Sequence record: MN882349.1
Source: Escherichia phage Ec_Makalu_003
Reading direction: 5' to 3' (one strand)
Length of the DNA stretch: 64,000 nt
The translations under genes and the position numbers were made by a program. The notes under the pieces are model-generated. The model saw only the letters and a list, made by a program, of their open reading frames with translations. It was not told where the DNA came from and ran no database searches. The number at the start of each line of letters is the position of its first letter. Position 1 is the stretch's first letter. Below are positions 919 to 28,420 of this stretch, in pieces.

Positions 919-992
919 ATTTGATTCTCCTGTAAAGTTGTATCTCGTCTTGATGAATATAGTATAGGGGATCTCGCGATCCCCGTCAAGCA
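919..992 (-). promoter_or_regulatory. early promoter/stem-loop cassette (PeSL-like) copy A
   Basis: minus strand: TTGACG, 17-nt spacer formed by palindrome GGGGATCTCGCGATCCCC, TATACT, conserved leader, RBS AGGAGAATCAAA. Confidence 0.6.
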
Positions 993-993
993 T

Positions 994-1545
994 TTATTTA
1001 AATTTTTCGAGAGATTTCAACCACAGGCGGCCTGGTAGGTACTCTCCGGCAAACATGAAATTGTCATCTGGATAAGAACGCAGCATATTCAAAATAAACT
1101 TCCGGCACTCTTCGTAATCTTTACGTTTAAGATAAATCACATTCTCGCCAGTACCGATCACACCTTTGCTGTATCCATGCTCTTTACGCACAGACCATTG
1201 TACAGTATCCTTTTTAACCCGAATCACAACAGGTTCCCAATACCCAGCGCATCCGGCTACACCACACGAACAGGTGAGGAAGTATTGACCTTTTGCTTTG
1301 TTTTCCTCCCACCCGATATTAACCGGATGCCATTCGTGAAACAAGGCTAAAGCATCGTGTGTCTCTTCGATCTGTTTATTGTCAATTCTTACCGTAACCA
1401 TCCATACAGGGATCTTATTTGTTGGTTCATCATCATAACATGAATCATCATCAATATGTTCTAATGTCATATCAACATTAATTGATTTTGCGTGTTCCAT
1501 GTGTCGTTGTGCTTTACGTTTACGGTTTAATGATTTCATAGTCAC
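994..1545 (-). CDS. hypothetical protein
   Basis: 183-aa ORF; no recognisable motif. Confidence 0.5.
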   Translation of the reverse strand: MTMKSLNRKRKAQRHMEHAKSINVDMTLEHIDDDSCYDDEPTNKIPVWMVTVRIDNKQIEETHDALALFHEWHPVNIGWEENKAKGQYFLTCSCGVAGCAGYWEPVVIRVKKDTVQWSVRKEHGYSKGVIGTGENVIYLKRKDYEECRKFILNMLRSYPDDNFMFAGEYLPGRLWLKSLEKFK

Positions 1546-1556
1546 CTCACATTATT

Positions 1557-2099
1557 TCAAAGATCGCGATATTGTACATTATGAAAGTGAGAACTTGCAT
1601 TACCAATATTGTAGATAATAAATTCTTCATCCGGCGCTTGCGCTACAAATTGAGTATGAGCAACCGCCACAACCTTAAAAATACGATCCGTGATCTTGTG
1701 TTTAATTTCGGCTCCTACTTCCATAGGAACATATTCATGTGTTTCTGTTTCAGTCGCAAAAAAGCCATCTTCTTCATAAGCACGAACAAATCGATCGCAA
1801 TCAGTACGCTTAACAAATTCAAGAGTATACAATTCTCGTGAATTGTCGGTATATACCAATATAGAATTATTATGATAGCGAATCACATACAGGTTATTAT
1901 CATCGTCAATTACGCAAAAGCTACGGATTTGTGTTCCTTCTCCTTTACTCCAGCAGATATTAACTACCGTTCCTCTAATAAAAAAACTTTCCTTTAAATT
2001 AAAACTAGCCAATGTGCTAGCGTGCATTTTAACAACAACACCATCACCAATTTCCAGTTTACGAAGTTTAACTTCTTTGCTCAGTACACAAAACATCAT
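1557..2099 (-). CDS. hypothetical protein
   Basis: 180-aa ORF with promoter cassette directly upstream. Confidence 0.5.
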   Translation of the reverse strand: MMFCVLSKEVKLRKLEIGDGVVVKMHASTLASFNLKESFFIRGTVVNICWSKGEGTQIRSFCVIDDDNNLYVIRYHNNSILVYTDNSRELYTLEFVKRTDCDRFVRAYEEDGFFATETETHEYVPMEVGAEIKHKITDRIFKVVAVAHTQFVAQAPDEEFIIYNIGNASSHFHNVQYRDL

Positions 2100-2160
2100 A
2101 ATGTTGTCCTCTCTTTGTTTTCGATGTGAGCATTATACATGAGCTAATCATGTTGTCAAC
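2100..2160 (-). promoter_or_regulatory. early promoter/stem-loop cassette copy B
   Basis: minus strand TTGACA, 16-nt palindromic spacer (ACATGA..TCATGT), TATAAT. Confidence 0.6.
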
Positions 2161-2163
2161 ACC

Positions 2164-2196
2164 CCAAAACGAAAAGCCGACCCTTTCGGATCGGCT
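2164..2196 (-). terminator. rho-independent terminator after nrdD
   Basis: hairpin GCCGACCC-TTTC-GGATCGGC followed by U-tract on minus strand. Confidence 0.6.
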
Positions 2197-2201
2197 GAAA
2201 T

Positions 2202-4064
2202 TTACATGTGCTTAACGCGGTTTACCATCTCGGAGTGTTTCCCGTGGTTGAATGGACGCAGGTCAACAGATCCAAGATATCCACTAACGCGACGGATAAC
2301 ATTCATCTTTTCAAGATTGTCATTGCCACAATCAGGGCAAACAAAACCAGACTCGGTCGCTCTCATTTCCTTAGTAGATCCGCATACATGACATACATCA
2401 GAAGGAGTATTAACACCGAAGTAGTGCAATTTATCCATTGCATAGTCTACTACAGTTTCAAGCCCTTTAATGTTGTTTTTCATGTCCGGGAACTCAACAT
2501 AAGAGATCATACCACCAGACGCCAGCCAGTGATAGTCTTTCTCAAAGTCTATTTTCTCAAACGGTGTAACTTTCCGGTCTACGTCAATGTGGAATGAGTT
2601 GGTGTACCAGTCTTTATCGGTAGCACCCTTAACAATACCAAATTGCTCTCGGTCCAGTCGATTAAATCGATAACAAAGGCTCTCGGCTGGCGTGCCGTAA
2701 AGACTAAACCCAAGTCCGGTTTCGTCCTTCCATTTTTCAGTATAATGACGCAGGATTTTAAGAATATGTTTACCGTATCGCTGCGCATCTTCCGAATCAA
2801 ACGGATGAACACCAAACAGGACGCTCAACACTTCATGTAAACCAATATACCCAAGAGAGATACTAGCGCGACCATCTTTCAGCACTTCCAAAATTTCATC
2901 GTTTTGATGAATACGGAAAAATGCACCTTCGGTATACAGTACAGGAGCAACATTGGCTTTAGCCCCTTTTAAAGCGTCTACGCGACTCATGAGCGCATCA
3001 AAGCAAATAGGCAGACGATTAGCTAGCTCTTGTTCGAATAGCTCAATTCTGCGCATTACAGACGCTTTACCAGCACGACGCGCGGCAATAAGTGCAATAC
3101 GCGGAAGATTCAGAGTCACAACACCTAAGTTATTACGTCCGTCTAATACTTCTTCGCCTTTCTCATTATGCCACACACCCAGGAAGCTACGACAACCCAT
3201 CGGGCTAACCGGAACACTAGATCCAGTGATACTACGGTTATTCTTCGCAGAGATATAATCAGGGTAAAGACGCTTACTAGAACATTCCAATGCAAGTTGC
3301 TTAATGTCGTAGTTCGGATCTTCCGGTTTAAGGTTTAATCCTTCTTCTAAGAACATCACCAGCTTAGGAAACACCGGAGTTATACCATCTTTACCTAAAC
3401 CTTTAGTTCGAACTTTCAGGATCGCTTTCTGAATCAGTTTTTCTTCCCAGCTAGTACCCATACCAAAGGTTAAAGTCACAAAAGGTGTTTGACCGTTGGT
3501 AGAGAACAAAGTGTTGATCTCATATTCCAACGCCTGATATCCGTCTAGTGTTTCTTTTTCTGTCTTCTCTTGTGCATAGAGAGTATTAGCTTTGATTCCG
3601 TAGGTTTCGGCATCAGCAAGGTGTTTATGATATGTTTTCTTAACATACGGTGCTAACACCTGATCGATGTTTGCTATGGTAGTTCCGCCATATTGATGAC
3701 TTGCCACCTGTGCGATAATTTGAGCTGTTACAGCACATGCAACACCGATCGATTTAGGACTTTCGATTTGTGCGCTACCCAATTTAAAACCATTCTCTAA
3801 CATGTCTTTGAGATTAACAAGACAGCAGTTAGTAAACGGCATAGCGGGTGCATAATCCATATCATGATAATGAATATCACCGTCTACATGCGCTTTATAG
3901 ATGTGCTCAGGTAACACGGTTTTAGCAATCTGTTTAGACACAGCACCAGCAATCAGATCTCGACGTGTCGGGAATGTTCGCGCGTCTTTGTTCGCGTTCT
4001 CTTTGCTTACTTCGTTTTCTTTACCCGTTGCGATCTCTGTAATGTCTTTGATTAGTTTTTCCAT
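2202..4064 (-). CDS. nrdD: anaerobic ribonucleoside-triphosphate reductase (class III RNR)
   Basis: 620 aa; C-terminal glycyl-radical motif 'RVSGYLG' and Zn-ribbon 'CHVCGS..CPDCG'; uninterrupted, no intron. Confidence 0.95.
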   Translation of the reverse strand: MEKLIKDITEIATGKENEVSKENANKDARTFPTRRDLIAGAVSKQIAKTVLPEHIYKAHVDGDIHYHDMDYAPAMPFTNCCLVNLKDMLENGFKLGSAQIESPKSIGVACAVTAQIIAQVASHQYGGTTIANIDQVLAPYVKKTYHKHLADAETYGIKANTLYAQEKTEKETLDGYQALEYEINTLFSTNGQTPFVTLTFGMGTSWEEKLIQKAILKVRTKGLGKDGITPVFPKLVMFLEEGLNLKPEDPNYDIKQLALECSSKRLYPDYISAKNNRSITGSSVPVSPMGCRSFLGVWHNEKGEEVLDGRNNLGVVTLNLPRIALIAARRAGKASVMRRIELFEQELANRLPICFDALMSRVDALKGAKANVAPVLYTEGAFFRIHQNDEILEVLKDGRASISLGYIGLHEVLSVLFGVHPFDSEDAQRYGKHILKILRHYTEKWKDETGLGFSLYGTPAESLCYRFNRLDREQFGIVKGATDKDWYTNSFHIDVDRKVTPFEKIDFEKDYHWLASGGMISYVEFPDMKNNIKGLETVVDYAMDKLHYFGVNTPSDVCHVCGSTKEMRATESGFVCPDCGNDNLEKMNVIRRVSGYLGSVDLRPFNHGKHSEMVNRVKHM

Positions 4065-4109: not shown

Positions 4110-4604
4110 TTATTTTACCAGTTCTGCTAATTCTTTTTCTTTAGCTTCCAGTTCAGCCTTAAGCTGTTTAATCTCTTGTCGCTTCTTATTAGCGGCTTCC
4201 TGCTTACTATTTCGGATAATCTGATCTAGATACAACTCCCAATCCTGAATATTTTTGATAATATAACCGTCAACATTAATTGGTCGGATATTTAGTACAG
4301 CTTCCAGTTTAGTCGCAAAGACTTTAATTGCTGGGGTGAAGTATTCATATTCGTTATCTTCAAACCAATAACCTAGACTTGCATTATCAATACGAAGACG
4401 AAGTTCAAGATCAAGGTCTTTATCTTCGGTGTATAGGTCTTTTACACCCCCCATCGAACCAACAACAACTTTAAAACGAATTTTATCAACACCACCAAAC
4501 ACATCAGTAAGGATACCAGCAATTGAACTATTAGCGCAAGATTGGTCGCTGAATGCGTCAAGGTTTTCTTTAGTTACAGTATACCAAACATCTTGTACCC
4601 ACAT
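4110..4604 (-). CDS. hypothetical protein with C-terminal coiled coil
   Basis: 164-aa ORF; C-terminal K/E-rich heptad-like tail; promoter cassette upstream. Confidence 0.55.
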   Translation of the reverse strand: MWVQDVWYTVTKENLDAFSDQSCANSSIAGILTDVFGGVDKIRFKVVVGSMGGVKDLYTEDKDLDLELRLRIDNASLGYWFEDNEYEYFTPAIKVFATKLEAVLNIRPINVDGYIIKNIQDWELYLDQIIRNSKQEAANKKRQEIKQLKAELEAKEKELAELVK

Positions 4605-4662
4605 AATATAATCCTCTCGTTGTTAAGTGGGAGTATTATAGCATACTCCCTTCGCATGTCAA
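4605..4662 (-). promoter_or_regulatory. early promoter/stem-loop cassette copy C
   Basis: minus strand TTGACA-N16-TATAAT; palindrome GGGAGTA..TACTCCC encloses the -10. Confidence 0.6.
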
Positions 4663-5837
4663 GCACGAACTTTTTTCTTTACTGCTTTCACCTTCTGGCG
4701 AATTGCTCGAATCTCTTCGATCTCTTTTTCAGTCTCTTTAACAATTTCTTTGCGATTCTGAATATCTGTATCGAGATTATCATCAAGTTTAGGCAGCATG
4801 TCAATCAAGAACTTTTTAAAGTCTTTCAGGTTTCGGATAACCGCACCTTCACCCATTACCGCCACCCCTACACCATCCGGCAGATCACCAAACAGCTTAA
4901 CCAGTTCAGATAGATGATCATGATCCTCTAGTGCTTCTTCCGGTTCAGATGGCAGTTCAACAAAGTTATAACGTTCATCATTGCTGATCAGATGATACCA
5001 GCAAAGCCCGAAAGATTTAGGAGTATATTCTACACCATCAACTTCAACCGCGTCAACACTTCCGAAAGGATCTACTTTAGTTACCTTAAATCCATGTTCC
5101 AGCTTTTGAACAATTTCAATAACATGGCTGGATACGGTTTCAGTGTTAAACCAATGAGGCAAATTATGCTGATTTGGCTTGTAGCGTTCGCCTACTTTAA
5201 ATCGCTGACCTTCCGCTTGCATAGAATGAAATTGATGGTTGGTGATTTCCGCGAAGTATTCAAATTCGCCACCGTCAAACACACAAGCCCATTGATCACA
5301 AAAACGATCTGCCTTAACGGTTTCACCTTTCGCGGTGATCATGGTAGCTGATCCGTGCAATTCTTCTTCAACCAAAAAGCCATATTCGACAAAATCAGCA
5401 AGTTTCATGGCTTCTTTGTGTTCTGGGTCATGCTCTCCCCAGAATCGCTTAAATTCTTGCAAACCTTCTGGGGTAAACGAATAACATTTACCTTTTTCAA
5501 AGTAAGTCGGCATTGCATCCTCTTTCTTGTTCATCGCTTCGTATGCCTCTTTTGAGATACGTTTAAAGTATTTGCGCTCATTGTGCATAATCATAGTAGA
5601 CCAATAATAAACGATATCCTCAGCGGAATAAACTACATCTCCAGCTTCAATAGTAATAACATGACCGTGGTCATCTTTTTCTAATACTTTAAAGCCCTTT
5701 TCTACGATTTCAGCAACTCGAATATGACCACGGCGCGAAGCATCGGTCAGAATAATTGAATAGCGAGAAAAGTCTAGAAACTCATCTTTACCGCCTTCAC
5801 GGAATGCATAGTAATGACCTTCAAAGAATTTAGCCAT
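4659..5837 (-). CDS. hypothetical protein, paralog family member (two repeated domains)
   Basis: 392 aa; shares the 'GFKVL..NERKYFKRI(S/T)K' domain with the 5901..6479 and 6488..6748 products. Confidence 0.6.
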   Translation of the reverse strand: MAKFFEGHYYAFREGGKDEFLDFSRYSIILTDASRRGHIRVAEIVEKGFKVLEKDDHGHVITIEAGDVVYSAEDIVYYWSTMIMHNERKYFKRISKEAYEAMNKKEDAMPTYFEKGKCYSFTPEGLQEFKRFWGEHDPEHKEAMKLADFVEYGFLVEEELHGSATMITAKGETVKADRFCDQWACVFDGGEFEYFAEITNHQFHSMQAEGQRFKVGERYKPNQHNLPHWFNTETVSSHVIEIVQKLEHGFKVTKVDPFGSVDAVEVDGVEYTPKSFGLCWYHLISNDERYNFVELPSEPEEALEDHDHLSELVKLFGDLPDGVGVAVMGEGAVIRNLKDFKKFLIDMLPKLDDNLDTDIQNRKEIVKETEKEIEEIRAIRQKVKAVKKKVRA

Positions 5838-5897
5838 AATATAATCCTCTCGTTGTTTAGATGGGAGTATCTTACTACTCCCGTTTCATCATGTCAA
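5838..5897 (-). promoter_or_regulatory. early promoter/stem-loop cassette copy D
   Basis: minus strand TTGACA-N17-TAAGAT; palindrome GGGAGTA..TACTCCC. Confidence 0.55.
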
Positions 5898-5900
5898 GCG

Positions 5901-6479
5901 TTAAAGTGACTTTTTAATCTCTTTCAGTTCTTCCACTTTCTCGGCGCTGAATTTAGCGTAGGTATCATGTCGAATAATTTCACTTTCAAGAAAGGTTTCC
6001 AGTCGAGATCTATTTTCAATAAGGAACTCTTTCAGGTCTTCCGCGTTCTTGACAAAGATTTTATTGTCGGTAATGTCATCTTCAATCGCAAAGGAGATAG
6101 AGCGAACTTTACCAAACAAGTTAATCAGATCTTCCAGAGATTCTTCTTTCTTAACTGGTTTCATTTCTTCAAACTGCTTTTTAGTGATGCGTTTAAAGTA
6201 TTTGCGCTCGTTTGCAGCAATCAGAACAGATGCACCTTCATACCCATGAGTTTCTACCAGATACACACGCCCCATCGCATCAACAGTGAGAACTTTAAAG
6301 CCGTTACAAAGCACGTCATACAAGAACTTATTATGTTGCGGACATCGTTTGATAAATTCTGCGGCTGTTTCTGCACTACGGAAAGTGTAATAACGACCTC
6401 GTTCAAAAACAGCATCATTTGAAGACTTAGCCGGATACAATTTATACGTTTTCTGTACCATAATATAATCCTCTATCAT
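5901..6479 (-). CDS. hypothetical protein, paralog family member
   Basis: 192 aa; shares 'NERKYFKRITK' and an identical 20-nt DNA stretch with 4659..5837. Confidence 0.6.
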   Translation of the reverse strand: MIEDYIMVQKTYKLYPAKSSNDAVFERGRYYTFRSAETAAEFIKRCPQHNKFLYDVLCNGFKVLTVDAMGRVYLVETHGYEGASVLIAANERKYFKRITKKQFEEMKPVKKEESLEDLINLFGKVRSISFAIEDDITDNKIFVKNAEDLKEFLIENRSRLETFLESEIIRHDTYAKFSAEKVEELKEIKKSL

Positions 6480-6487: not shown

Positions 6488-6748
6488 TTAAACAGCACGG
6501 AACAGAATGCGCTCACACGGAAGCAGCATAAATTCCCAACGCGGGTCAAAGTCTTTAGCGGTGTATGTTTTCCCATCAACCGCTATTTCACTTACATAAC
6601 CAACAGGTGACACTTTAAGAACAGTAAACCCATTCTTGATGACTTCGTAGGTATCTTTCACCCCTTCGTATTCATCATCTAAGAAGTCTTTATGTGCTTG
6701 CTCAGATTTAAAAACATAGGCCACACCAGCTTTAAACATCTTACGCAT
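6488..6748 (-). CDS. hypothetical protein, short paralog family member
   Basis: 86 aa; 'NGFTVLKV..DG..YT' resembles the repeated domain of its neighbours. Confidence 0.5.
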   Translation of the reverse strand: MRKMFKAGVAYVFKSEQAHKDFLDDEYEGVKDTYEVIKNGFTVLKVSPVGYVSEIAVDGKTYTAKDFDPRWEFMLLPCERILFRAV

Positions 6749-6808
6749 TGTTGATTCTCCTTCTTGATTAGATGGGAGTATTTTACTACTCCCATTTTAT
6801 GTTGTCAA
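6749..6808 (-). promoter_or_regulatory. early promoter/stem-loop cassette copy E
   Basis: minus strand TTGACA-N17-TAAAAT; palindrome GGGAGTA..TACTCCC. Confidence 0.55.
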
Positions 6809-6811
6809 CTA

Positions 6812-7300
6812 CTATCTTAATCTTTGTATGAATTGTTTCTTATACTTCTTCGTGATCTCTTCTCTTGTATCAGCGTCGCAGTAATCGAAACCTTCTGCGT
6901 CCATAATAGCAACCATCTCCGCGCGTGTCAAGCGTGAAAATCGTTTTACTTTATCAACGGCATATTGAGGATGTAAATGATTGTTGGTGTAGTCTCCTTT
7001 GATGTAATTAACGTAGTTTGTAGCCCAAACTACGAAATCAGCACCTAAAGCACCAACACCAAACCGCTTAAAGTCTCCGGTCAACGATCCTTCTAGGCGG
7101 TTGCAACACGAATGAAGCAATCCCCTTACGCGGCCTTGACCTTTCCCATCTAGGTCGTGATCATGGTCAAGATGATTTTTGCTCATATCCTCAAAAAGTG
7201 GTAATTGACAAAGGGGGCAAATGCCCCCTTGTTTTTCGAATAGTTCTTGTTTGTACTCTTTAGCACTCTTAGCAGTCAGTAACATAAATTCACCCTCCAA
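6812..7300 (-). CDS. 49: endonuclease VII (Holliday-junction resolvase)
   Basis: 162 aa; Zn-binding CPLC plus 'NHLDHDHDL..RGLLHSCCN' endonuclease-VII-type motif; position between nrdD and nrdC as in T4. Confidence 0.85.
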   Translation of the reverse strand: MEGEFMLLTAKSAKEYKQELFEKQGGICPLCQLPLFEDMSKNHLDHDHDLDGKGQGRVRGLLHSCCNRLEGSLTGDFKRFGVGALGADFVVWATNYVNYIKGDYTNNHLHPQYAVDKVKRFSRLTRAEMVAIMDAEGFDYCDADTREEITKKYKKQFIQRLR

Positions 7301-7309: not shown

Positions 7310-7603
7310 TTAACCATTAATCTTGTTTTTGACTACAAAGGATCTGAACTCATCAAAGCCACCGATATAATCACCATTATAGAAAATCTGCGGCATGGTG
7401 GCAATAACTTCTACCCCTGCGCGATCCTGAATGTCGGCAATGATAGAATCAATCTTTACCGGACGACCGTTTTCGTCTACACCATCATTAACCGGAATGT
7501 AGATGTAAGGGATCTTACGCGATTCACAAAGGCGCTTTGCATTCTGGCAATACTTACAGTTGTAACCTTCAAAACCAAAAATTTCTACCATATTATACCT
7601 CAA
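7310..7603 (-). CDS. nrdC: glutaredoxin/thioredoxin (RNR reductant)
   Basis: 97 aa; CxxC active site 'CKYC'; 'NGDYIGGFDEF' end typical of glutaredoxins. Confidence 0.8.
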   Translation of the reverse strand: MRYNMVEIFGFEGYNCKYCQNAKRLCESRKIPYIYIPVNDGVDENGRPVKIDSIIADIQDRAGVEVIATMPQIFYNGDYIGGFDEFRSFVVKNKING

Positions 7604-8412
7604 TCTACGTTAGTTACATAAACTTCTTGCGTATCAGAAGACTTGCCACCTGAACGATCTAGGCAATAGGTCTTATTCAACAGGACGCAGTTTAGATCAT
7701 TCCGCTTGATAAAGTCAAGAAGATGATCATTTACCTTTCCCTTATGATGCGTGACATTACTGATACCAAACTGAAAACCACGCGCCATAATAGATTCTAC
7801 CCACTGATAGAATTTAATCTCTTCCTCGTCACTCCAGAACTTATTATATTCCGCAGAAGTGATAAGATACGGCGGGTCCAAATAAACGAAATCACCTGGC
7901 AAGATCTCGATCTCGTCATATCGTCCAGAAGTAAAAATGATTCGACCGTCTTTGTTTTCTTCCTTAAAATTCAGGACACGCTCTACCGCGTTTTCGTTAA
8001 AAGTCCGGCGACCAAAATTAGCATTAAATTCGCCCTTCCGGTTATGGCGGTTAATGTTGCTAAAACTATGCTGAATCAACACAAACAGCGATAGCGGATC
8101 TGGATTCTCGTTATACTTCTTACGGAATGTCATGTAAGCGTCTTTATCTTCGCGAGACAAACCATTTTCGGCAATAATCCGCTTGATCGTAGAAACCGGA
8201 TCAGGACACTCGTCAATGGCCTTGTAAGCGTCAATTAATTGGTGATCATAGTCATTAGCCAGCACATCACCTTCGACGTACAGAGACACGCTCAAGCCAC
8301 CACAAAAGGCATCAACAAAGCGTTTGTAGTGCTTAGGGAAATACTTACTAATTGTCGGTAATAACTTTTCTTTATTGCCAGTATAGGGAATTAAACCTAA
8401 TACTTTCTTCAT
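7600..8412 (-). CDS. dam: DNA adenine methyltransferase (Dam-type, alpha-class N6A)
   Basis: 270 aa; SAM motif 'FVDAFCGGLSV' and catalytic 'DPPY'. Confidence 0.9.
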   Translation of the reverse strand: MKKVLGLIPYTGNKEKLLPTISKYFPKHYKRFVDAFCGGLSVSLYVEGDVLANDYDHQLIDAYKAIDECPDPVSTIKRIIAENGLSREDKDAYMTFRKKYNENPDPLSLFVLIQHSFSNINRHNRKGEFNANFGRRTFNENAVERVLNFKEENKDGRIIFTSGRYDEIEILPGDFVYLDPPYLITSAEYNKFWSDEEEIKFYQWVESIMARGFQFGISNVTHHKGKVNDHLLDFIKRNDLNCVLLNKTYCLDRSGGKSSDTQEVYVTNVD

Positions 8413-9661: not shown

Positions 9662-9970
9662 TTATTTCACGTTAACGCCGTCATCAATCCAGCCGACGCT
9701 ATTTGGTTTAACAGTTTTACCATAGGATGCATACTTAATCAAGCATGGTTTAACATCATTATCAAATCTTCCTAAGCGCACTCCCAAATCAGGAATATCC
9801 ATGTATGCGGCTTTATATCCCCATGTACAATATTCAGCATCAATCTCAACCGGACGGCCTTTAAAAGCATATACTACACCGTAACGGTCAACAATAACAT
9901 AGCGATAGCCAGCCGGAAGATACACAGTTTCGCCGTAAACTTTAACTGGAGTAGCAGAAGAGATAAACAT
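9662..9970 (-). CDS. hypothetical protein
   Basis: 102-aa ORF with promoter cassette upstream. Confidence 0.5.
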   Translation of the reverse strand: MFISSATPVKVYGETVYLPAGYRYVIVDRYGVVYAFKGRPVEIDAEYCTWGYKAAYMDIPDLGVRLGRFDNDVKPCLIKYASYGKTVKPNSVGWIDDGVNVK

Positions 9971-10033
9971 AATATAATCCTCACATCGTTCATTTGATGC
10001 GGCTATTATAGGATAACCGCATTTTCATGTCAA
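9971..10033 (-). promoter_or_regulatory. early promoter/stem-loop cassette copy F
   Basis: minus strand TTGACA, imperfect palindrome GCGGCTAT..ATAACCGC enclosing TATAAT. Confidence 0.5.
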
Positions 10034-10039
10034 CTGTTT

Positions 10040-10414
10040 TTAAAAATCTTCTTCCGGTTTATATCGACCGTCGTCTTCTTGTTTTGGAGTAAATCCTGTA
10101 TGCTTGCGCGGCTTCGCTTCCGGTTTACCAGCAATCATCAAACCAAAACATTTCAGCCCCTTATAACACATAACAATATAAACTACTGTCCACGTTATAG
10201 GCCAGATGATTGCCGCAATACAAAATGCTCCTGTATCGACCTCTTTGGTGTCCTTGTCGAATCTGGCATACAAGCAGAATATAAGATACGAGATCATTGC
10301 ACCAGTAGGCCAAATATAAAGCACATTAACAATATCTTGTGTTGTCACATTATCCTCCTTACATGTCTTGCAGTGCGTAAAAGCATTTTTCTTCATAGTC
10401 ATAGAAAATGTCAA
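10040..10414 (-). CDS. predicted membrane protein
   Basis: 124 aa; two hydrophobic helices; charged C-terminus. Confidence 0.5.
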   Translation of the reverse strand: MTFSMTMKKNAFTHCKTCKEDNVTTQDIVNVLYIWPTGAMISYLIFCLYARFDKDTKEVDTGAFCIAAIIWPITWTVVYIVMCYKGLKCFGLMIAGKPEAKPRKHTGFTPKQEDDGRYKPEEDF

Positions 10415-10637
10415 AGTATGCTTTTTCTACATACTCGCCATTGATCCAAGCGGCAGTAACAATCAGAGTGGTCCAGTTAGATCCGCTCTCAACGGTAAAG
10501 GTTTTAATACCCAGCTTCACAGCAAGGTCACGCGCAAACTGGTCGCAACCACGGCAGGAAGTGATATTGGAAGTTTTGATTTTGATGCCACCGCGAGTTT
10601 TAGAAATTTCTACTTTAGCGAAAGACAGGTTGCTCAT
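10359..10637 (-). CDS. hypothetical protein
   Basis: 92-aa ORF with promoter cassette upstream. Confidence 0.5.
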   Translation of the reverse strand: MSNLSFAKVEISKTRGGIKIKTSNITSCRGCDQFARDLAVKLGIKTFTVESGSNWTTLIVTAAWINGEYVEKAYFDIFYDYEEKCFYALQDM

Positions 10638-10707
10638 TTTGATTCTCCTTAAAAAGTGTGTTTCGTTTTGATGTGTGTAGTATAGGGGATCGGCGATCCC
10701 CTGTCAA
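10638..10707 (-). promoter_or_regulatory. early promoter/stem-loop cassette copy G
   Basis: minus strand TTGACA-GGGGATCGCCGATCCCC-TATACT; the 17-nt spacer is a perfect palindrome with two GATC sites. Confidence 0.65.
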
Positions 10708-10723
10708 CAACTTTTTTATGATT

Positions 10724-11044
10724 TTAGTGAATTAACTCTACACCAAAATGAGGCACAGAGAACGCCTTACGAAACACATATTCATCATGTTTAGGAATCG
10801 CCCCTAACCGCTCTATTTCGCTCGCCATCACGATAAACTGTTTATCTGGTGCATATGCCTTGTGTGCTTCAACAACGCACGGAAAACGCGTTTTAGAGAG
10901 TTCTGGATAGTTTTCTGAATCCAGAAGGACAATGAATACCCTGTTACATTGATTGTAGAATCCTGTTTTTGATTTCATCAAGTTTTCTTCTATGTTCAAG
11001 TCGTGCAATCTTCTTTTCATGATTTCGTTGGTTCTTGTCTTCAC
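10724..11044 (-). CDS. hypothetical protein (true start may be an internal Met)
   Basis: 106-aa ORF overlapping the upstream ORF by about 100 nt in another frame. Confidence 0.35.
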   Translation of the reverse strand: MKTRTNEIMKRRLHDLNIEENLMKSKTGFYNQCNRVFIVLLDSENYPELSKTRFPCVVEAHKAYAPDKQFIVMASEIERLGAIPKHDEYVFRKAFSVPHFGVELIH

Positions 11045-11282
11045 AGTTTACCCACTCAACAAGATCTTTACCTAACTCAAAAGCCCATTCTCGGTCTTGC
11101 TTTACGTTTTGTAGGTATGGACTTTCCGACACTCGACGAAGTGATGTTGTCGTAACAAGAATGACCCCATGAATGGTCGGATGCTCCTTACCATATACAA
11201 TCGGACGGGAATCCCTTTCGACACCTTGTAAGAAGGTGTATCCTGAATCATTCAGCAACAAATACATTTTCGGTTCGTTCAT
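10944..11282 (-). CDS. hypothetical protein
   Basis: 112-aa ORF. Confidence 0.4.
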   Translation of the reverse strand: MNEPKMYLLLNDSGYTFLQGVERDSRPIVYGKEHPTIHGVILVTTTSLRRVSESPYLQNVKQDREWAFELGKDLVEWVNCEDKNQRNHEKKIARLEHRRKLDEIKNRILQSM

Positions 11283-11542
11283 TACAGCTTCCTCAACCAG
11301 TTATTAAAGCGAGCAAACAATGATGCTTTTCGTGCTTCTTCTTCGGCTTTGCACGCACGCAAACCACTGAAACACCATTCATAATCATCACTGAAACATG
11401 ATTCAACAGGAACACCCGCATTTCGTAGTTCTCTGGTCGTTATCATAAATCCTTGACATAATGGGCGACCTTCAACAATGATAGGAAGTTTAACTTTTTT
11501 CATGAAAGTATACCCAGCACGGTCAATAATTTCAATCTTCAT
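11282..11542 (-). CDS. small protein, 'GY(T/S)FMK..LPIIVEGRP' family copy 1
   Basis: 86 aa; paralog of 11561..11764 and 14117..14338. Confidence 0.55.
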   Translation of the reverse strand: MKIEIIDRAGYTFMKKVKLPIIVEGRPLCQGFMITTRELRNAGVPVESCFSDDYEWCFSGLRACKAEEEARKASLFARFNNWLRKL

Positions 11543-11560
11543 AATATAATCCTCAATTAA

Positions 11561-11764
11561 TTACACTGCCCAGGCTTCTTTGCTAAGAAAACACCATTTA
11601 TACTCAGGAGAATAACCTTTAATCGCTACGCCAGCTTTTTGCAATTCCTGCGTTTCAACAACATAATCAAGCCCATACGGTCGACCTTCCACGATGATAG
11701 GAAGTTCAACGCCTTTCATGAAAGAATATCCGCCATCGTCAAAAATTTCAATTTTAATTTTCAT
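11561..11764 (-). CDS. small protein, same family copy 2
   Basis: 67 aa; 'GGYSFMKGVELPIIVEGRP'. Confidence 0.55.
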   Translation of the reverse strand: MKIKIEIFDDGGYSFMKGVELPIIVEGRPYGLDYVVETQELQKAGVAIKGYSPEYKWCFLSKEAWAV

Positions 11765-12009
11765 TTTACATTATCTCCATAGATCTTTCCATCAATATCA
11801 ATTTCACCAGCGCGAACATCTAGGATAAGATGCGGTAGGTGTATGTAGTTTTCCCACCCTACGCGCTTCATTTCTTCTACGGTAACGTAAGCCCACCCGT
11901 TCGCTGTAATAAAGTCTACTTCAACCTTGAGAGGAAAGCAAGACTTTTCTATGTCTTCGAATCCGACAATATGTTTTGTTGTTGAATATGGAATATATCC
12001 GGTGATCAT
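11761..12009 (-). CDS. hypothetical protein
   Basis: 82-aa ORF. Confidence 0.45.
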   Translation of the reverse strand: MITGYIPYSTTKHIVGFEDIEKSCFPLKVEVDFITANGWAYVTVEEMKRVGWENYIHLPHLILDVRAGEIDIDGKIYGDNVK

Positions 12010-12440
12010 TTTGTGATCTCCTTATACTCAACACACCATAAGCGGGTAGCCCATGATAAACGCTCATAACGCTGGCAGAAATCGGACCATAGATATTGTG
12101 CACCGTTCGGCATAGTTGAAATATGCGTTTTCTCTCCAACTTTCACGAAAGAAGTGTTCGATTTTGTGATCTCGACCGGAGTATATCCGAAAGCGGGTTC
12201 CAAGCCAACATCTGAACTAAATGCCAATTTAACAGAATTTGTTTTTCTAACCGCTGTCCGGTTTCCTTCTGGGTATAGCACAGCAGGTTTAGCGCCTAAG
12301 CGGATAAACTCACTATTTTTAATAAACAGAATATCATGATAACCGTCATATTCCGACACTTCCATAGTAACAGGAAAATCGACATGTTCTAAACCTGGTA
12401 GATCTCGCATATCATGAAATGTAGCCATCAACTTTTTCAT
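12006..12440 (-). CDS. hypothetical protein, paralog pair member
   Basis: 144 aa; segment 'ITKSN(T/M)SFVKVGE.THI(S/T)TM' shared with 12451..12696. Confidence 0.5.
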   Translation of the reverse strand: MKKLMATFHDMRDLPGLEHVDFPVTMEVSEYDGYHDILFIKNSEFIRLGAKPAVLYPEGNRTAVRKTNSVKLAFSSDVGLEPAFGYTPVEITKSNTSFVKVGEKTHISTMPNGAQYLWSDFCQRYERLSWATRLWCVEYKEITK

Positions 12441-12916: not shown

Positions 12917-13178
12917 TACATGCTTTTAATGCATCAGTCGCTGTGTCATAACGAGTATTATCATAGCACCAGTAACCATCTATCAACTGATAAATTAATC
13001 CATCCTTTTTAGCTTCGATGAAAGACAATTCTTTGAAAGTTTCTACTTTCTTTGCTGATAATCCACGATCACGGCGCTTATAGAGTTTAGCTAAAATGCG
13101 TTCAGCTTGTTCCTCTTTATCACCAGACAGATCCCAAATAATGTTGCGGATATGTTTGATTAATTGTTCAGTGGTCAT
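12888..13178 (-). CDS. hypothetical protein
   Basis: 96-aa ORF with promoter cassette upstream. Confidence 0.5.
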   Translation of the reverse strand: MTTEQLIKHIRNIIWDLSGDKEEQAERILAKLYKRRDRGLSAKKVETFKELSFIEAKKDGLIYQLIDGYWCYDNTRYDTATDALKACNDHLRKTTL

Positions 13179-13235
13179 CTTTGATTCTCCTTAGTTGGTA
13201 TGCGTGCATTATAGCACTATGATTTTCATTGTCAA
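13179..13235 (-). promoter_or_regulatory. early promoter/stem-loop cassette copy H
   Basis: minus strand TTGACA-N16-TATAAT; short GTGC..GCAC stem. Confidence 0.5.
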
Positions 13236-13240
13236 CAACT

Positions 13241-13272
13241 AAAAACAAAAAAGGCTACCCCGAAGGATAGCC
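13241..13272 (-). terminator. rho-independent terminator after glycine-rich gene
   Basis: GGCTACCC-CGAA-GGATAGCC hairpin plus U-tract on minus strand. Confidence 0.6.
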
Positions 13273-13279
13273 CATAAAA

Positions 13280-14116: not shown

Positions 14117-14338
14117 TTAGATGATCTCAGCTTCACCATTCAGGAAGAAAGACCAAGTTTTGTTTGGGTAACGACGCGCCCATGATTCGGCGGTTTTAAC
14201 ACCAGCTTCGAACAATTGACGGCTGGTTACTTTAGCCATACCATCTTCGATGGCAACGTTTTCAATAATCATCGGGTACTTAGCGCCACGCATGAAACCG
14301 AAGCCAGCGGAAGATTTGATAATTTTAACAGTTGCCAT
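14117..14338 (-). CDS. small protein, 'GF(G/S)FM..PxII' family copy 3
   Basis: 73 aa; 'SAGFGFMRGAKYPMIIENV' is related to 11282 and 11561 products. Confidence 0.5.
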   Translation of the reverse strand: MATVKIIKSSAGFGFMRGAKYPMIIENVAIEDGMAKVTSRQLFEAGVKTAESWARRYPNKTWSFFLNGEAEII

Positions 14339-14408
14339 TTTTGATTCTCCTAGAAAGTGTATCTCGTTTCGATGGGTGTATTATGCAATAACACCGGATC
14401 GCTGTCAA
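14339..14408 (-). promoter_or_regulatory. early promoter/stem-loop cassette copy I
   Basis: conserved RBS and leader; -35 TGTCAA (rc) at 14403-14408. Confidence 0.55.
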
Positions 14409-14427
14409 CACTTTCTAAGAAAATTTT

Positions 14428-15394: not shown

Positions 15395-15593
15395 TCTTTA
15401 CAGTCTCCATAATTGTTTTGTAAGCCAGTTTAAGATGATCACCGAAAAACTTTGCGGTGTTACCTTTCGGATCGCGAAGCATGGTTTCTACGATCTCATC
15501 GGCAGTAACAATTTCTCCTTTCTTTGCTGCATGTTCTACCATATACTTCAAAGTTTCTTCGGAAGCAAGTGCTGCGGCTACTGGATTAATCAT
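15384..15593 (-). CDS. hypothetical protein
   Basis: 69-aa ORF with promoter cassette upstream. Confidence 0.45.
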   Translation of the reverse strand: MINPVAAALASEETLKYMVEHAAKKGEIVTADEIVETMLRDPKGNTAKFFGDHLKLAYKTIMETVKNAK

Positions 15594-15651
15594 TTTGATT
15601 CTCCTTTGTTGTCGATGTGTGCATTATGCTATACTATATTCCGGTTGTCAA
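15594..15651 (-). promoter_or_regulatory. early promoter/stem-loop cassette copy J
   Basis: conserved RBS/leader; -35 TGTCAA (rc) at 15646-15651. Confidence 0.5.
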
Positions 15652-15659
15652 CACCTAAA

Positions 15660-15692
15660 AACGAAAAAGCCACCCTTTCGGATGGCTTTTGA
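15660..15692 (-). terminator. rho-independent terminator
   Basis: AGCCACCC-TTTC-GGATGGCT hairpin with flanking T/A runs. Confidence 0.55.
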
Positions 15693-16677: not shown

Positions 16678-17274
16678 TTAGTTGGTAGTGCCATCAATAA
16701 AATGTTTACGGCACACAGAGACATATTTATCCTCTGCACCAACTTCTATTTGAGCACCATCGCGAATAACATTACCCTCTTTATCTACACGAAGGACCAT
16801 TGTTGCTTTCTTGCCACAATGACAAATACCCTTCATTTCGACCAGTTTATCAGCAAATGCCATCAATGCAGCAGATCCTTCAAATAGATTGCCCTGAAAG
16901 TCAGTGCGAAGACCATAACACAGGACAGGGATATTTGCATCATCAACAAGCGCACACAAGCCTAAAACATGCTCTTTAGTCATAAATTGGGCTTCGTCTA
17001 CAAAAACTGCATCTGGACGCCATCGATCCGGTCTACGCTTACCTAACGATTCACGATAAACCAAGTCGAAAAGATCATCCGATTCAGTGAAGGTGATCGC
17101 TGGAGCACTTAGGCCAATTCGGGAAACAACTTCACTTTCTGAATCTCGATTATCAATCGCTGGCTTAAGAATTAATACTCGCATATCACGTTCGGTATAG
17201 TTATAAGCACTTTGTAACAGGGAAGTTGATTTGCCAGCGTTCATAGATGCATAGTAGAAATATAATTGCGCCAT
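16678..17274 (-). CDS. tk: thymidine kinase
   Basis: 198 aa; P-loop 'SMNAGKST'; C-terminal Zn-binding 'CHCGKKA..CRKH'. Confidence 0.9.
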   Translation of the reverse strand: MAQLYFYYASMNAGKSTSLLQSAYNYTERDMRVLILKPAIDNRDSESEVVSRIGLSAPAITFTESDDLFDLVYRESLGKRRPDRWRPDAVFVDEAQFMTKEHVLGLCALVDDANIPVLCYGLRTDFQGNLFEGSAALMAFADKLVEMKGICHCGKKATMVLRVDKEGNVIRDGAQIEVGAEDKYVSVCRKHFIDGTTN

Positions 17275-17567
17275 TAATTAATCTCCAAAAATCCAGCAAG
17301 ACCTAAGCCGATATAAGTCCAAATACAAAGTAAAAAGAAGCAAACACCCATAACAAAGATAAATCCGCGTAGTGTCTTTGGATAACCTACCCAATATTCC
17401 CGACCATCTTCTAACCGGATCAGCTTATTTCCTTGAGAGTCCATATCAATTACAACATGTTTATTTCTGGATTGTAAAAGATATTGCTTGACAATCTCAA
17501 TACCCGCCATAATAACAATAACGAAATTGAAAGTCCACATAACAAGGTTAATGATAGTCTCAAGCAT
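17274..17567 (-). CDS. predicted membrane protein
   Basis: 97 aa; two hydrophobic segments. Confidence 0.5.
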   Translation of the reverse strand: MLETIINLVMWTFNFVIVIMAGIEIVKQYLLQSRNKHVVIDMDSQGNKLIRLEDGREYWVGYPKTLRGFIFVMGVCFFLLCIWTYIGLGLAGFLEIN

Positions 17568-17802
17568 TTTCTATCACCTCCACCCAATCAGGGGTTTCCT
17601 GAAAGACTCCTTCGCCTTCATGATGGTCGCAACCTTTATTGCTGCAATACATCCACCAATCCCACATTCCCCACGGTAAACGCTGCATATCGTCGTTACA
17701 GCAAGTGAAGATGATAGGCCAACCACATCTAACACATCGGCAGTTTTCCTTCATGTGAGCGGTATTAGGCTTCTTCATAGATGACTCCAATATAATCGAC
17801 AT
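17560..17802 (-). CDS. Cys/Trp-rich small protein (putative Zn-binding)
   Basis: 80 aa; 'CRCVRCG..CCND..CSNKGCDHH'. Confidence 0.45.
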   Translation of the reverse strand: MSIILESSMKKPNTAHMKENCRCVRCGWPIIFTCCNDDMQRLPWGMWDWWMYCSNKGCDHHEGEGVFQETPDWVEVIENA

Positions 17803-18005
17803 TTACATGTAGGGCAATGCGGTTCTTTAATATAATACCCGTCTGTCTTTGGAACACTAACAGGAGCGGTTTTTATATTGTATTCAGTGAAACAACGAAA
17901 ACAAGTTACGTTTTCTACAGACTGACGTTTAACCCAATCGCCGGAATATAGATCATTTTTATTTGCCATATTCAACCACCACAATATTGATATCTGGAGT
18001 AGCAA
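17775..18005 (-). CDS. Cys-rich small protein (putative Zn-ribbon)
   Basis: 76 aa; 'CFRCF..CPTCKC'. Confidence 0.4.
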   Translation of the reverse strand: MLLQISILWWLNMANKNDLYSGDWVKRQSVENVTCFRCFTEYNIKTAPVSVPKTDGYYIKEPHCPTCKCRLYWSHL

Positions 18006-26625: not shown

Positions 26626-26844
26626 TTATTTATATCGCTTTCTCTCGCGACGTTTTTGATCTTCTTCCTTGATAGAGTTAAATGCATCAAAAAGACACAT
26701 GACACTAATAATAAACATAACCGTATTTTCTACGATATCCCACGGCTTCGCATCAGTACAGATCCCCCAAACGGTAAGAAATGCAAATAAGGCAGAAGAG
26801 ATCACAAGCATGATACTTGCTAAGATATAAAAGGTCATCTTCAT
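26626..26844 (-). CDS. small membrane protein
   Basis: 72 aa; two TM helices; basic C-tail 'KRRERKRYK'. Confidence 0.45.
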   Translation of the reverse strand: MKMTFYILASIMLVISSALFAFLTVWGICTDAKPWDIVENTVMFIISVMCLFDAFNSIKEEDQKRRERKRYK

Positions 26845-27259: not shown

Positions 27260-27347
27260 CAGATCATAAGAAACCCCAACGCAATAAGAATTGCATCAAA
27301 TTTAGTGAACTCCGGTCCACCTATCAACATCATTCGTTCCTGTTCAG

Positions 27348-27545
27348 TCATAGATCACAGATCCATCTAAAAGCACCACATACAGCGATCAGGAGTGTAG
27401 GAACACTTGAGAAGAAAACCAATGTACAAAAATCATCTAGTGTAATACCGGAATAACTACCTACTGCAATCACACCGATGATCAGACACAGAAAGAAAAC
27501 AAATGCAATCAGAAACAAAGTATTGCTAAACAGTTTAGTGATCAT
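27348..27545 (-). CDS. small membrane protein
   Basis: 65 aa; hydrophobic. Confidence 0.45.
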   Translation of the reverse strand: MITKLFSNTLFLIAFVFFLCLIIGVIAVGSYSGITLDDFCTLVFFSSVPTLLIAVCGAFRWICDL

Positions 27546-27739
27546 TAGACACCCCCACGACGGTCAATTTCAAAAACTTTCTTATCACAGACAAAGCAGG
27601 TCACTACAGCCTCATTGACTTCCGCAAATTGTTGTGTTACCCACTTAAGGTCAGAGCTAAACAATGTTTTGTTAATAACAAATGTTTTACCTTTCTTATC
27701 TTTACCCATAAATTTTGCGTTAACCATATCCAATTCCAT
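27545..27739 (-). CDS. hypothetical protein
   Basis: 64-aa ORF. Confidence 0.4.
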   Translation of the reverse strand: MELDMVNAKFMGKDKKGKTFVINKTLFSSDLKWVTQQFAEVNEAVVTCFVCDKKVFEIDRRGGV

Positions 27740-27748
27740 ATTATCACC

Positions 27749-27907
27749 TTATTTGCTAATCGCTAAACCTAATCCGAAGAGAGCACCAGACGCTACAGTA
27801 TACCCGAAAGTTTCAAAGGCAGTAAAGATATCCAACCCACCAGCTAACAGAGTTGCAGTAAACAGAGTACCAGCTACGAACATAAAAGTTTTACCGATAA
27901 ATTTCAT
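27749..27907 (-). CDS. small hydrophobic peptide (52 aa), absent from the ORF track
   Basis: Hand-translated as MKFIGKTFMFVAGTLFTATLLAGGLDIFTAFETFGYTVASGALFGLGLAISK; ATG follows the cassette RBS. Confidence 0.4.
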   Translation of the reverse strand: MKFIGKTFMFVAGTLFTATLLAGGLDIFTAFETFGYTVASGALFGLGLAISK

Positions 27908-27967
27908 TTTGATTCTCCTTTCGTTTGTTTGTGGGGGTATCTTACTACCCCCGTTTCATGTTGTCAA
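27908..27967 (-). promoter_or_regulatory. early promoter/stem-loop cassette copy O
   Basis: palindrome GGGGGTATCTTACTACCCCC, -35 TGTCAA (rc). Confidence 0.55.
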
Positions 27968-27974
27968 ACTGTTT

Positions 27975-28352
27975 TTAAGAATATTTTACTTCGTCTACAA
28001 TGTCTTTCATGACATTAATTTCCATTCCGGTCAGAACACGTTGGAACATGTGCTGCACATACGCTTTCAGGTATTCATTTGATGGCTTGCTATCAAAAGT
28101 CTTTTTAATGTAGTAGTCATCACCGAAAGCTACTGTAATTACATTTTCGTCGTCGTTCCAGGCAATATAAGCAAATTTTCCGTTATCCCAGAAGCGAGCA
28201 CTAATTGCTACTTTGGTTGAATCGAATCCGACTTCGCTGTGAGATTCAAGAACTACTTGCGTGCCCGTTTCTTTATGAATGTAGTAGCGGGATACTAAGT
28301 CAAAGTTACGGGTGTAGTGACATTCGAATTTATCTTTAAACATCATCATCAT
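27975..28352 (-). CDS. hypothetical protein
   Basis: 125-aa ORF with promoter cassette upstream. Confidence 0.5.
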   Translation of the reverse strand: MMMMFKDKFECHYTRNFDLVSRYYIHKETGTQVVLESHSEVGFDSTKVAISARFWDNGKFAYIAWNDDENVITVAFGDDYYIKKTFDSKPSNEYLKAYVQHMFQRVLTGMEINVMKDIVDEVKYS

Positions 28353-28420
28353 TTTTTGATTCTCCTAAGTGTGTTTCGTTTCGATGTGTGCATTATGCTA
28401 TATTCGTTTATGGTTGTCAA
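28353..28420 (-). promoter_or_regulatory. early promoter/stem-loop cassette copy P
   Basis: conserved RBS and leader GTGTTTCGTTTCGATGTGTG, -35 TGTCAA (rc). Confidence 0.55.

Follow-up and report, generated by a model that had tools for sequence, protein, structure and literature searches.

Promoter-early stem-loops (PeSLs) are known from two RB49-like coliphages: Arbiol, Comeau, Kutateladze, Adamia & Krisch (Genome Biol Evol 2:140, 2010; PMC2839356) described about 100 of these motifs in Phi1 and RB49. A PeSL combines a promoter of σ70 consensus, with an AT-rich stretch upstream, a polyG/polyC stem-loop and, at the 3' end, a Shine-Dalgarno (SD) sequence and start codon; the stem-loop can lie in any of five places, with the -35/-10 interval and the -10 itself as the commonest, and the motifs lie mostly before ORFans, in hyperplastic regions (PMC2839356). 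Some have been put to experimental test: PeSL206/205 of Phi1 has a promoter activity of ~13,000 Miller units, the stem-loop of PeSL211/210 cut the expression of a downstream lacZ reporter as strongly as rrnB T1, and RB49 and Phi1 formed mini-circles whose crossovers fall in the interval from the -10 to the SD (PMC2839356). Here we consider sixteen minus-strand elements of Escherichia phage Ec_Makalu_003 (record MN882349.1), contained in a stretch of 64,000 nucleotides that is called the window in what follows. They are the PeSLs already published for the RB49-like coliphages: a correct rediscovery, not a new element. Taken together, these PeSL cassettes are very probably the compact intergenic expression units of an RB49-like phage. 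What is added here is modest: a reading of the ribosome-binding site (RBS) block as a RegB site, an either/or relation between terminators and in-promoter hairpins, and two comparative junctions. The PeSL literature reportedly also includes work by Comeau et al. from 2014.

Every one of the 67 records matched by megablast (positions 10000-16000 and 1-25000 of the window against a phage collection) belongs to Krischvirus, the RB49-like T4-type coliphages; Ec_Makalu_001 and Ec_Makalu_002 are the best matches (98-99% identity), and RB49, Phi1, JSE and GEC-3S are 94-96% identical to the window. The GC skew marks off minus-strand genes, to ~32 kb, from the plus-strand late genes beyond. This layout of gene strands, together with the annotation tables of the relatives, places the cassettes in the early, hyperplastic region that, in an RB49-type genome, extends from nrdG to gene 57B; those tables record hypothetical proteins there.

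A search for TTGAC(A/G/T) followed by a spacer of 16-18 nt and a -10-like hexamer, and then by inspection, recovers exactly sixteen intergenic minus-strand cassettes, each of which runs into an SD block and an ATG (Table 1; a cassette is named p plus the coordinate of the first base of its -35). The original prediction, made from the letters of the sequence, had placed sixteen such cassettes between 919 and 28420; all are there and the extent agrees. As it had proposed, the -35 is TTGACA (15 copies) or TTGACG (one). Its spacer length of 16-17 nt holds for all copies save one (16 nt in 3, 17 nt in 12), the odd one being 18 nt long. The -10 hexamers are CATAAT (five copies), TATAAT (four), TATACT and TAAGAT (two each), and TAAAAT, TAATAT and TACAAT (one each).

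The set is far above chance. Matches to the σ70 consensus at 11 or more of 12 positions number 18 on the minus strand of positions 1-32000 and none on the plus strand, where dinucleotide shuffles give 0.76 ± 0.93. With nhmmer, a profile built from the sixteen cassettes recovers all of them and adds a plus-strand copy at 42133-42194, the rest being noise. When each copy is left out in turn, 15 of the 16 are found by the model of the remaining 15 (E 1e-13 to 2e-4), the sole failure being p989, the most divergent. The 20 nt 5' of the -35 are on average 74% A+T (59% in the window) and a run of at least four A precedes the -35 in 11 of the 16; the distance from the cassette gene to the gene upstream is 54-306 nt. 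Mean pairwise identity among the window's cassettes is 56%, and the exact tracts that they have in common are 12-32 nt long.

The downstream genes had been said to be nearly all small and of unknown function, and so for the most part they are: the proteins range from 50 to 392 aa, 13 of them at 125 aa or less, and 12 of the 16 have no Pfam match, two fall in DUF families and one carries large polyvalent protein associated domain 25 (LPD25; E 3e-14). The last, led by cassette L, is the homologue of an RB49 gene that the PeSL authors had flagged as akin to plasmid or integron genes.

Table 1. Coordinates in the window of the sixteen cassettes, of a seventeenth copy, and of the regB and dam genes
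Feature	Positions	Strand	Elements	Gene or operon led	Score
Cassette A (p989)	916..1001	-	TTGACG, hairpin GGGGATC-gcga-GATCCCC fills spacer, TATACT, leader, AGGAGAATCAAA, ATG 918	50-aa DUF7170 open reading frame (ORF)	fold z -2.6
Cassette B (p2159)	2097..2196	-	terminator 2196-2175, TTGACA-16-TATAAT, GAGAGGACAACATT, ATG 2099		fold z -4.5
Cassette C (p4662)	4602..4674	-	TTGACA-16-TATAAT, hairpin GGGAGTAT/ATACTCCC with -10 in loop, GAGAGGATTATATT, ATG 4604		fold z -3.0
Cassette D (p5897)	5835..5909	-	TTGACA-17-TAAGAT, hairpin GGGAGTA/TACTCCC over -10, ATG 5837	frd.2/goF-like, 392 aa	fold z -2.9
Cassette E (p6808)	6746..6820	-	TTGACA-17-TAAAAT, hairpin ATGGGAGTA/TACTCCCAT over -10, AGGAGAATCAAC, ATG 6748		fold z -3.4
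Cassette F (p10033)	9968..10045	-	TTGACA-17-TATAAT, hairpin GCGGTTAT/ATAGCCGC (one G.U) over -10, ATG 9970		fold z -3.7
Cassette G (p10707)	10635..10719	-	TTGACA, GGGGATCGCCGATCCCC, TATACT, full leader, AGGAGAATCAAA, ATG 10637		fold z -3.3
Cassette H (p13235)	13176..13273	-	terminator 13273-13252 (end of gp38 module), TTGACA-16-TATAAT, AGGAGAATCAAA, ATG 13178		
Cassette I (p14408)	14336..14420	-	TTGACA-17-CATAAT, imperfect hairpin over -10, AGGAGAATCAAA, ATG 14338		fold z -0.7 (weakest)
Cassette J (p15651)	15591..15690	-	terminator 15690-15665, TTGACA-17-CATAAT, AGGAGAATCAAA, ATG 15593		
Cassette K (p20296)	20233..20308	-	TTGACA-18-TAATAT, hairpin GGGGGTA/TACCCCC over -10, CGGAGTATTAAA, ATG 20235	operon extends into regB	fold z -2.4
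Cassette L (p25457)	25384..25469	-	TTGACA-17-CATAAT, hairpin GGGTGTAT/ATACACCC over -10, exact leader, AGGAGTATCAAA, ATG 25386	LPD25-domain ORF, 25060-25386 (-), RB49 ORF113 homologue	fold z -3.4
Cassette M (p26156)	26096..26168	-	TTGACA, GGGGAG-gataa-CTCCCC, TACAAT, GGGAGAATCAAA, ATG 26098		fold z -4.4
Cassette N (p26425)	26348..26478	-	terminator 26478-26457, A/T tract, TTGACA-17-CATAAT, exact leader, CGGAGAATCAAA, ATG 26350	DUF7421	
Cassette O (p27967)	27905..27979	-	TTGACA-17-TAAGAT, hairpin GGGGGTA/TACCCCC over -10, AGGAGAATCAAA, ATG 27907	operon extends into dmd	fold z -2.9
Cassette P (p28420)	28350..28458	-	terminator 28458-28437, TTGACA-17-CATAAT, exact leader, AGGAGAATCAAA, ATG 28352		fold z -4.8
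17th cassette	42102..42202	+	terminator-like hairpin, TTGACA-16-TATAAT (42143), GGAGGATAAAT, ATG 42200		profile E 6e-8
regB	19473..19898	-	endoribonuclease gene, PF10715		2e-48
dam	7600..8412	-	D12-class N6-adenine methyltransferase gene, PF02086		

The likeness to PeSLs, also remarked on in the original prediction, extends to every sequence-level trait by which the family is described, and all sixteen cassettes have positional orthologues in each of RB49, Phi1, JSE, Makalu_002, SSG23 and a second assembly of RB49 (OZ-RB49). The core of PeSL206/205, TTGACAGGGGATCACCGATCCCCTATACT, is nearly identical to that of p10707, the hairpin loop being ACC in the one and GCC in the other. A hairpin, GGGGATCGGTGATCCCC, is found both in the RB49 orthologue of p10707 and in the Phi1 cassette upstream of ORF210, which we take to be the equivalent of PeSL211/210. 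An RB49 early-promoter consensus with C at -3 to -1 is stated to agree with 5'-end mapping (Desplats 2002, as given by Nolan 2006; PMC1524935), and it fits the CATAAT and TATAAT hexamers and the discriminators ending in CCC of the window's cassettes. The objection that transcripts might not start downstream of these elements is thereby in effect answered for their orthologues. Promoter strength, attenuation by the hairpin, early 5' ends and mini-circles have all been shown experimentally by others, on RB49 and Phi1 elements that are orthologous or nearly identical to those of the window. A pattern scan of IMG/VR for the cassette core beyond the genus returned only three contigs, one of them phage ECD7, and no wider family with the exact core.

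How would such a cassette work? Its A/T-rich tract and consensus -35 and -10 would be read by unmodified host RNA polymerase straight after infection, with transcription probably starting at the A of a conserved CATC, 7 nt past the -10, while the GC-rich hairpin would shield the cassette from transcription arriving from upstream. An A/C-rich leader of 25-45 nt, predicted to have little structure, leads to the conserved SD block (GGAGAAUCAAA in most copies, GAGAGGAUUAUAUU in four) and the ATG. The SD block would also be a RegB/S1 site, at which phage RegB probably inactivates the early mRNAs minutes later. Lastly, since the same cassette of 70-100 nt precedes many unrelated small genes, its copies may provide homology patches with which the phage recombination system deletes, inserts or swaps modules without breaking their expression.

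The hairpins come in position classes. The spacer had been predicted to be, or to overlap, a near-perfect palindrome, and this describes 11 of the 16 cassettes: three (A, G and M) have a hairpin that fills the spacer, and eight (C, D, E, F, K, L and O, and I imperfectly) have one over the -10, with the 5' arm at the end of the spacer, the -10 in the loop and the 3' arm in the discriminator. The other five (B, H, J, N and P) have a stem-less promoter core and carry instead, upstream of the -35, a GC-rich hairpin with an immediate T-run, that is, an intrinsic (Rho-independent) terminator. Upstream terminator versus in-promoter hairpin is a strict either/or split: among the 71 distinct promoter cores of the window and eight related loci, window-type stem-less cores are all orthologous to the five terminator-bearing cassettes. 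Folding z is below -2 in 14 of the 16 regions, with p14408 and p26425 the weakest. Conservation of pairing across copies, on which the original prediction had staked itself, is borne out by covariation in the stems, which vary in sequence (GGGAGTA/TACTCCC, GGGTGTA/TACACCC, GGGGGTA/TACCCCC, GCGGTTA/TA(A/G)CCGC) with three of the seven pairs altered on both sides; every cell of the stem comparison pairs, a figure of 100% that is partly circular since the stems were extracted by hand and chosen as hairpins.

What do the in-promoter hairpins do? Where the hairpin fills the spacer or lies over the -10, its 3' arm finishes upstream of the probable start site, so that the hairpin would exist only in RNA that reads through from upstream, and this fits an insulating role. 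It counts against simple termination that no U-run lies 3' of any of the 11 in-promoter hairpins and that a sense-strand terminator scan calls none of them: classical intrinsic termination is consequently not evident for these eleven. One can think of them instead as 3'-end stability or processing structures on the read-through mRNA: after a downstream cut by RegB or RNase E, 3' exonucleases would halt at the hairpin and the upstream message would be protected. The missing U-runs favor such a role, as does the location of the hairpins upstream of the cassette's own start, which confines them to upstream transcripts; five one-sided stem changes (among orthologues and paralogues) also yield G.U pairs on the sense strand. 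That they are stabilizers and not terminators at all is nonetheless unlikely. The hairpin of the presumed PeSL211/210 equivalent is GGGGATCGGTGATCCCC, and the stem-loop of PeSL211/210 matched rrnB T1 in the reporter (PMC2839356), a published result that bears on the spacer class only and not on the class over the -10. Wobble pairs, for their part, are not a clean indicator of strand: the five internal G.U pairs are on the sense strand, yet on the antisense strand several stems become longer by an extension closed with G.U. In cassettes E and O (6770-6797 and 27931-27954, +) the hairpins, read in the antisense direction, have T-rich sequence after them and resemble terminators by score, and the annotation of Makalu_002 marks plus-strand terminators at cassette positions; these hairpins may act as insulators both ways. 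Rfam (gathering threshold) and ARAGORN gave no known RNA family or tRNA in the window that would account for the leaders or hairpins.

The GGGG...CCCC palindromes might, alternatively, act as DNA: as sites for phage proteins, or as extruded structures that are cut by EndoVII or gp46/47 and so target recombination, a speculation raised by Arbiol et al. (PMC2839356). The stems are indeed GC-rich and kept as palindromes, and the window has an EndoVII gene. Stems of 6-10 bp with loops of 3-8 nt are too short for ready extrusion, however; internal G.T wobbles become A.C mismatches on the opposite strand; and the stems vary between classes, which leaves no single recognition sequence. The published crossovers, moreover, lie outside the stem (PMC2839356). 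Action as DNA is for these reasons very improbable, and insulation of the cassette from upstream transcription is retained as the reading of the hairpins.

The leader and the RBS block connect the cassettes with RegB. The leader that had been put forward as conserved, CATCGAAACGAAACAC, is exact in 3 copies and present with at most two mismatches in 5, a subset of the 16; as for the RBS that had been put forward with it, AGGAGAATCAAA, seven cassettes have it letter for letter and 11 with no more than one mismatch, and four use GAGAGGATTATATT or a close variant. An SD and a start codon stand at the 3' end of all sixteen. The target of RegB/S1 is an 11-nt single-stranded GGAGRAYARAA (T4 consensus GGAGAAUAAAA), which in most cases serves an early gene as its SD (PMC3014915, PMC1702504). 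The cassette RBS block, GGAGAATCAAA, agrees with this cleavage consensus at 10 of 11 positions. The window has 17 matches to the consensus at no more than one mismatch: nine are cassette SDs, one belongs to the 17th cassette and one is the SD of regB. On a heuristic set of genes, a RegB-like site is found at 9 of 16 cassette genes versus 1 of 64 others (regB itself; p = 4.5e-7), and an SD of GGAG type at 12 of 16 versus 18 of 64 (p = 0.001).

The factor that acts in trans on the cassette SD blocks is probably RegB, whose cleavage of them we infer from established T4 biology. The SD of regB itself (GGATAATAAAA, 19895-19905, -) is RegB-site-like and of GGAU type. In RB49, regB has a GGAU SD that is cleaved by RegB, an instance of autocontrol (PMC3014915), with which the sequence here agrees. 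(A note on precedence: the PeSL paper, PMC2839356, discusses neither RegB sites nor GATC.) These elements suggest a wider proposal, plausible and tentative: the predicted RegB/S1 site in the SD block may be a timed off-switch for each early operon that a cassette leads, and the U-less in-promoter hairpins may be 3' stoppers that choose which upstream messages survive. If so, PeSLs would be complete on-then-off expression modules, and the retention of the 3' half of the RBS and of the hairpins, beyond the needs of transcription and translation, would be accounted for.

Dam is another matter. The phage does encode it, as had been noted, but GATC lies within the palindrome of only two cassettes (p989 and p10707) and not in the four or more that had been claimed; in p14408 and p26425 the GATC of the spacer is outside any stem. 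One might suppose that methylation of spacer GATC tunes the early promoters, so that injected, methylated DNA and newly replicated DNA behave differently. For this speaks, besides the presence of the gene, the tally of six sites in 4 of 16 spacers where 1.9 are expected. The probability of at least four such spacers is 0.09, however, two of the four are paralogues, 12 of the 16 cassettes have no GATC, and GATC is neither depleted nor special in the window as a whole (376 sites, 340 expected). The sites are also evolutionarily labile: they are lost from p14408 in Phi1, from p26425 in SSG23 and, at the second p10707 site, from Phi1, JSE and G2248, and gained in p15651 in Phi1 and SSG23. Spacer GATCs are not constant among the relatives, where a Dam-controlled promoter would keep one at a fixed position, and neither the GATC statistics nor the comparison of orthologues links the dam gene to the cassettes. 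The original hint that GATC and Dam matter is accordingly not sustained: regulation by Dam has been rejected, and it is exceedingly improbable.

Do the cassettes serve as points of exchange? Positions 1-33000 of the window were aligned with nine related loci, and about 14 indel or replacement events were distinguished, four of which touch a cassette: 1) a replacement of ORF054 ends at 1010, 21 nt before the cassette A -35; 2) the gp38 module, 13202-14117, is missing from G2248 and LF73P4; 3) SSG23, G2248 and Brandy have an insertion at 15738-15810, a gene of 2 kb that lies ~50 nt upstream of the cassette J terminator; and 4) homology with LF73P4 stops at 10634. At the gp38 site, G2248 and LF73P4 have another promoter, TTGACACGGGGAGAAATCCCCGTATAAT, of class I with a hairpin in its spacer, in place of that of cassette H, and homology restarts at CATACCAACTAAGGAG, between -10 and SD: precisely the interval of the published mini-circle crossovers (PMC2839356). 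In LF73P4 (OZ035795.1; blocks at 9900-17439 and from 36592 onward), downstream of cassette G the sequence runs collinear with the ORF189.1-ORF210 block of Phi1, ~80 kb away in that phage, and the stretch common to the Phi1-type and window-type homologies, 94 nt long, is the cassette. On alignment this looks like a recombination junction, at ~37.6 kb of OZ035795.1, and recombination at the cassettes may occur in Ec_Makalu_003 itself.

Several points weigh against a general role of the cassettes in shuffling. The association of events with cassettes is not significant (four of about 14; binomial p = 0.08-0.3), and the LF73P4 junction is possibly a misassembly at a repeat, since the assembly is unannotated. 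The ten cassette-free events comprise insertions of homing endonuclease genes (at 3185-3195, 21466-21493, 22654-22678, 30961 and 31799-31809, the window having none of the inserts), indels of small ORFs (11542-11679, 12462-12665, 17773-17967 and 24663-24864) and the point, 30622, at which homology with LF73P4 ceases. The exact tracts common to the cassettes, at the identity given above, are short for homologous recombination, and all sixteen cassettes are positionally stable in the collinear genomes compared. With a non-significant association and short tracts, the shuffling role rests on single cases and on the literature, and the cassettes are not identifiable as its main driver from the window alone.

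Could these then be ordinary early promoters and terminators, fixed in place and not portable, which selection toward the σ70 consensus and a strong RBS has made alike? The occurrence of all sixteen at the same gene junctions in RB49, Phi1, JSE, Makalu_002, SSG23 and OZ-RB49 is what one would expect of fixed sites, as are the preponderance of indels away from the cassettes and the mean pairwise identity of barely more than half. The likeness between copies nevertheless reaches parts for which there is no consensus to converge on: the discriminator, the CATCGAAAC leader and the 3' half of the SD block. The cassette at the gp38 site is chimeric, the LF73P4 overlap is exactly a cassette, and the mini-circles of RB49 and Phi1 cross over between -10 and SD (PMC2839356). 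Fixed sites shaped by convergence are on balance a doubtful explanation, and portable PeSL cassettes are preferred.

Some further observations concern the sites of the events just listed. The gp38 adhesin gene (13280-14059, -) forms a self-contained module between terminators at 14095-14080 and 13273-13252, and no late-promoter motif TATAAATA lies upstream of it. The extra gene near cassette J encodes ~715 aa (spans 24240-26387, 23345-25489 and 14623-16770 in loci L006, L007 and L018, respectively); Phi1 has a small ORF, ORF084.1, at that spot. Homing endonuclease genes split nrdD in JSE, lie between nrdC.11 and vs.6 in JSE and LF73P4, precede the endolysin gene in JSE, G2248 and OZ-RB49, and separate gp2 from gp4 in Makalu_002; the insert at 30961 is a ~1-kb ORF of Phi1, JSE and G2248 that is annotated only as hypothetical (ORF130.1). 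Three neighbouring small ORFs at 11282-12009 (-; 86, 67 and 82 aa) have alike N-terminal coding sequences, and six of the compared genomes differ from the window by an indel of the middle ORF, where the alignment ends overlap as they do at repeats; the pattern suggests tandem duplication and loss without a cassette. The arrangement of LF73P4, taken with the stop of its homology at 30622, would reflect a large rearrangement or else a misassembly at repeats. (A technical note: two match starts beside cassette ATGs do not figure among the events. That of Brandy, at 6758, is an artefact of joining pieces, Brandy being collinear on full comparison; that of JK32, at 4602, was not used as evidence.)

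The 17th cassette stands apart, between the late baseplate genes gp8 (41095-42090) and gp9 (43689-44543), where it leads an early module of three ORFs (42102-43688, +; 85, 109 and 279 aa), of which the longest encodes a second methyltransferase (MTS/Eco57I/N6_Mtase-like). At 43654, before gp9, a late-promoter motif follows (TATAAATA), and the module is present in nearly all of the Krischvirus records found. Upstream of cassette N, from the ORF118 stop, extends a non-coding stretch of ~170 nt (26457-26626, -) that begins after another copy of the same motif (26634-26627) and ends in the terminator of that cassette. It folds into three hairpins and the terminator (minimum free energy -63.9, z -3.9) and is 97-100% identical in nine relatives, above its flanks; it has no Rfam or tRNA match, and it is a candidate small RNA. 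A promoter before the gp4 homologue (32277-32320, -; TTGATA-16-TATAAT) is spanned by an 8-nt inverted repeat, AGCACCCT ... AGGGTGCT; the cassette profile does not match it.

A reading of raw sequence has thus recovered real phage cassettes of regulation and recombination that have experimental support, and no new biology. Their interest is that PeSLs offer a concrete route to modular evolution in large lytic phages, the therapy candidates Phi1 and GEC-3S included: they mark likely points at which accessory genes are swapped, and they supply very strong, compact early promoters. Most worth noting are that the RBS looks like a RegB site and that upstream terminators and in-promoter hairpins divide the cassettes cleanly.

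How do the cassettes compare with other known systems? They have in common with the RegB/S1 sites of T4 (Durand et al. 2006; Uzan & Miller 2010) the 11-nt block of GGAG and A-rich sequence that is the SD of an early gene, and here, too, regB is encoded; they differ in having C at position 8, where A is favoured, and in that four cassettes have a GAGG-type SD without GGAG. With the early promoters of T4 (Tequatrovirus) and the stem-loops of the T-even IP loci they share strong promoters for host RNA polymerase, upstream A-tracts, and early genes that are often non-essential; repetition has been proposed as a guide to shuffling there as well. The T4 early promoters, on the other hand, have a GTTTAC-like -35 and need Alt modification, and the T-even stem-loops have AT-rich stems without polyG/polyC; the PeSL authors regard them as analogues and not homologues. 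Integron cassettes and phage morons are likewise small, self-sufficient units, gained and lost between conserved genes, with a promoter and terminator that they bring along or make use of. Unlike integrons, the system of the window has no integrase or attC-type site, and exchange would use general homologous recombination; phage morons are not known to move by way of their regulatory sequences. From the PeSLs of RB49 and Phi1 there is no categorical difference: loops and spacers differ slightly, the set of small ORFs is a different one, and the phage is a separate isolate, nearest to Ec_Makalu_001/002 and GEC-3S.

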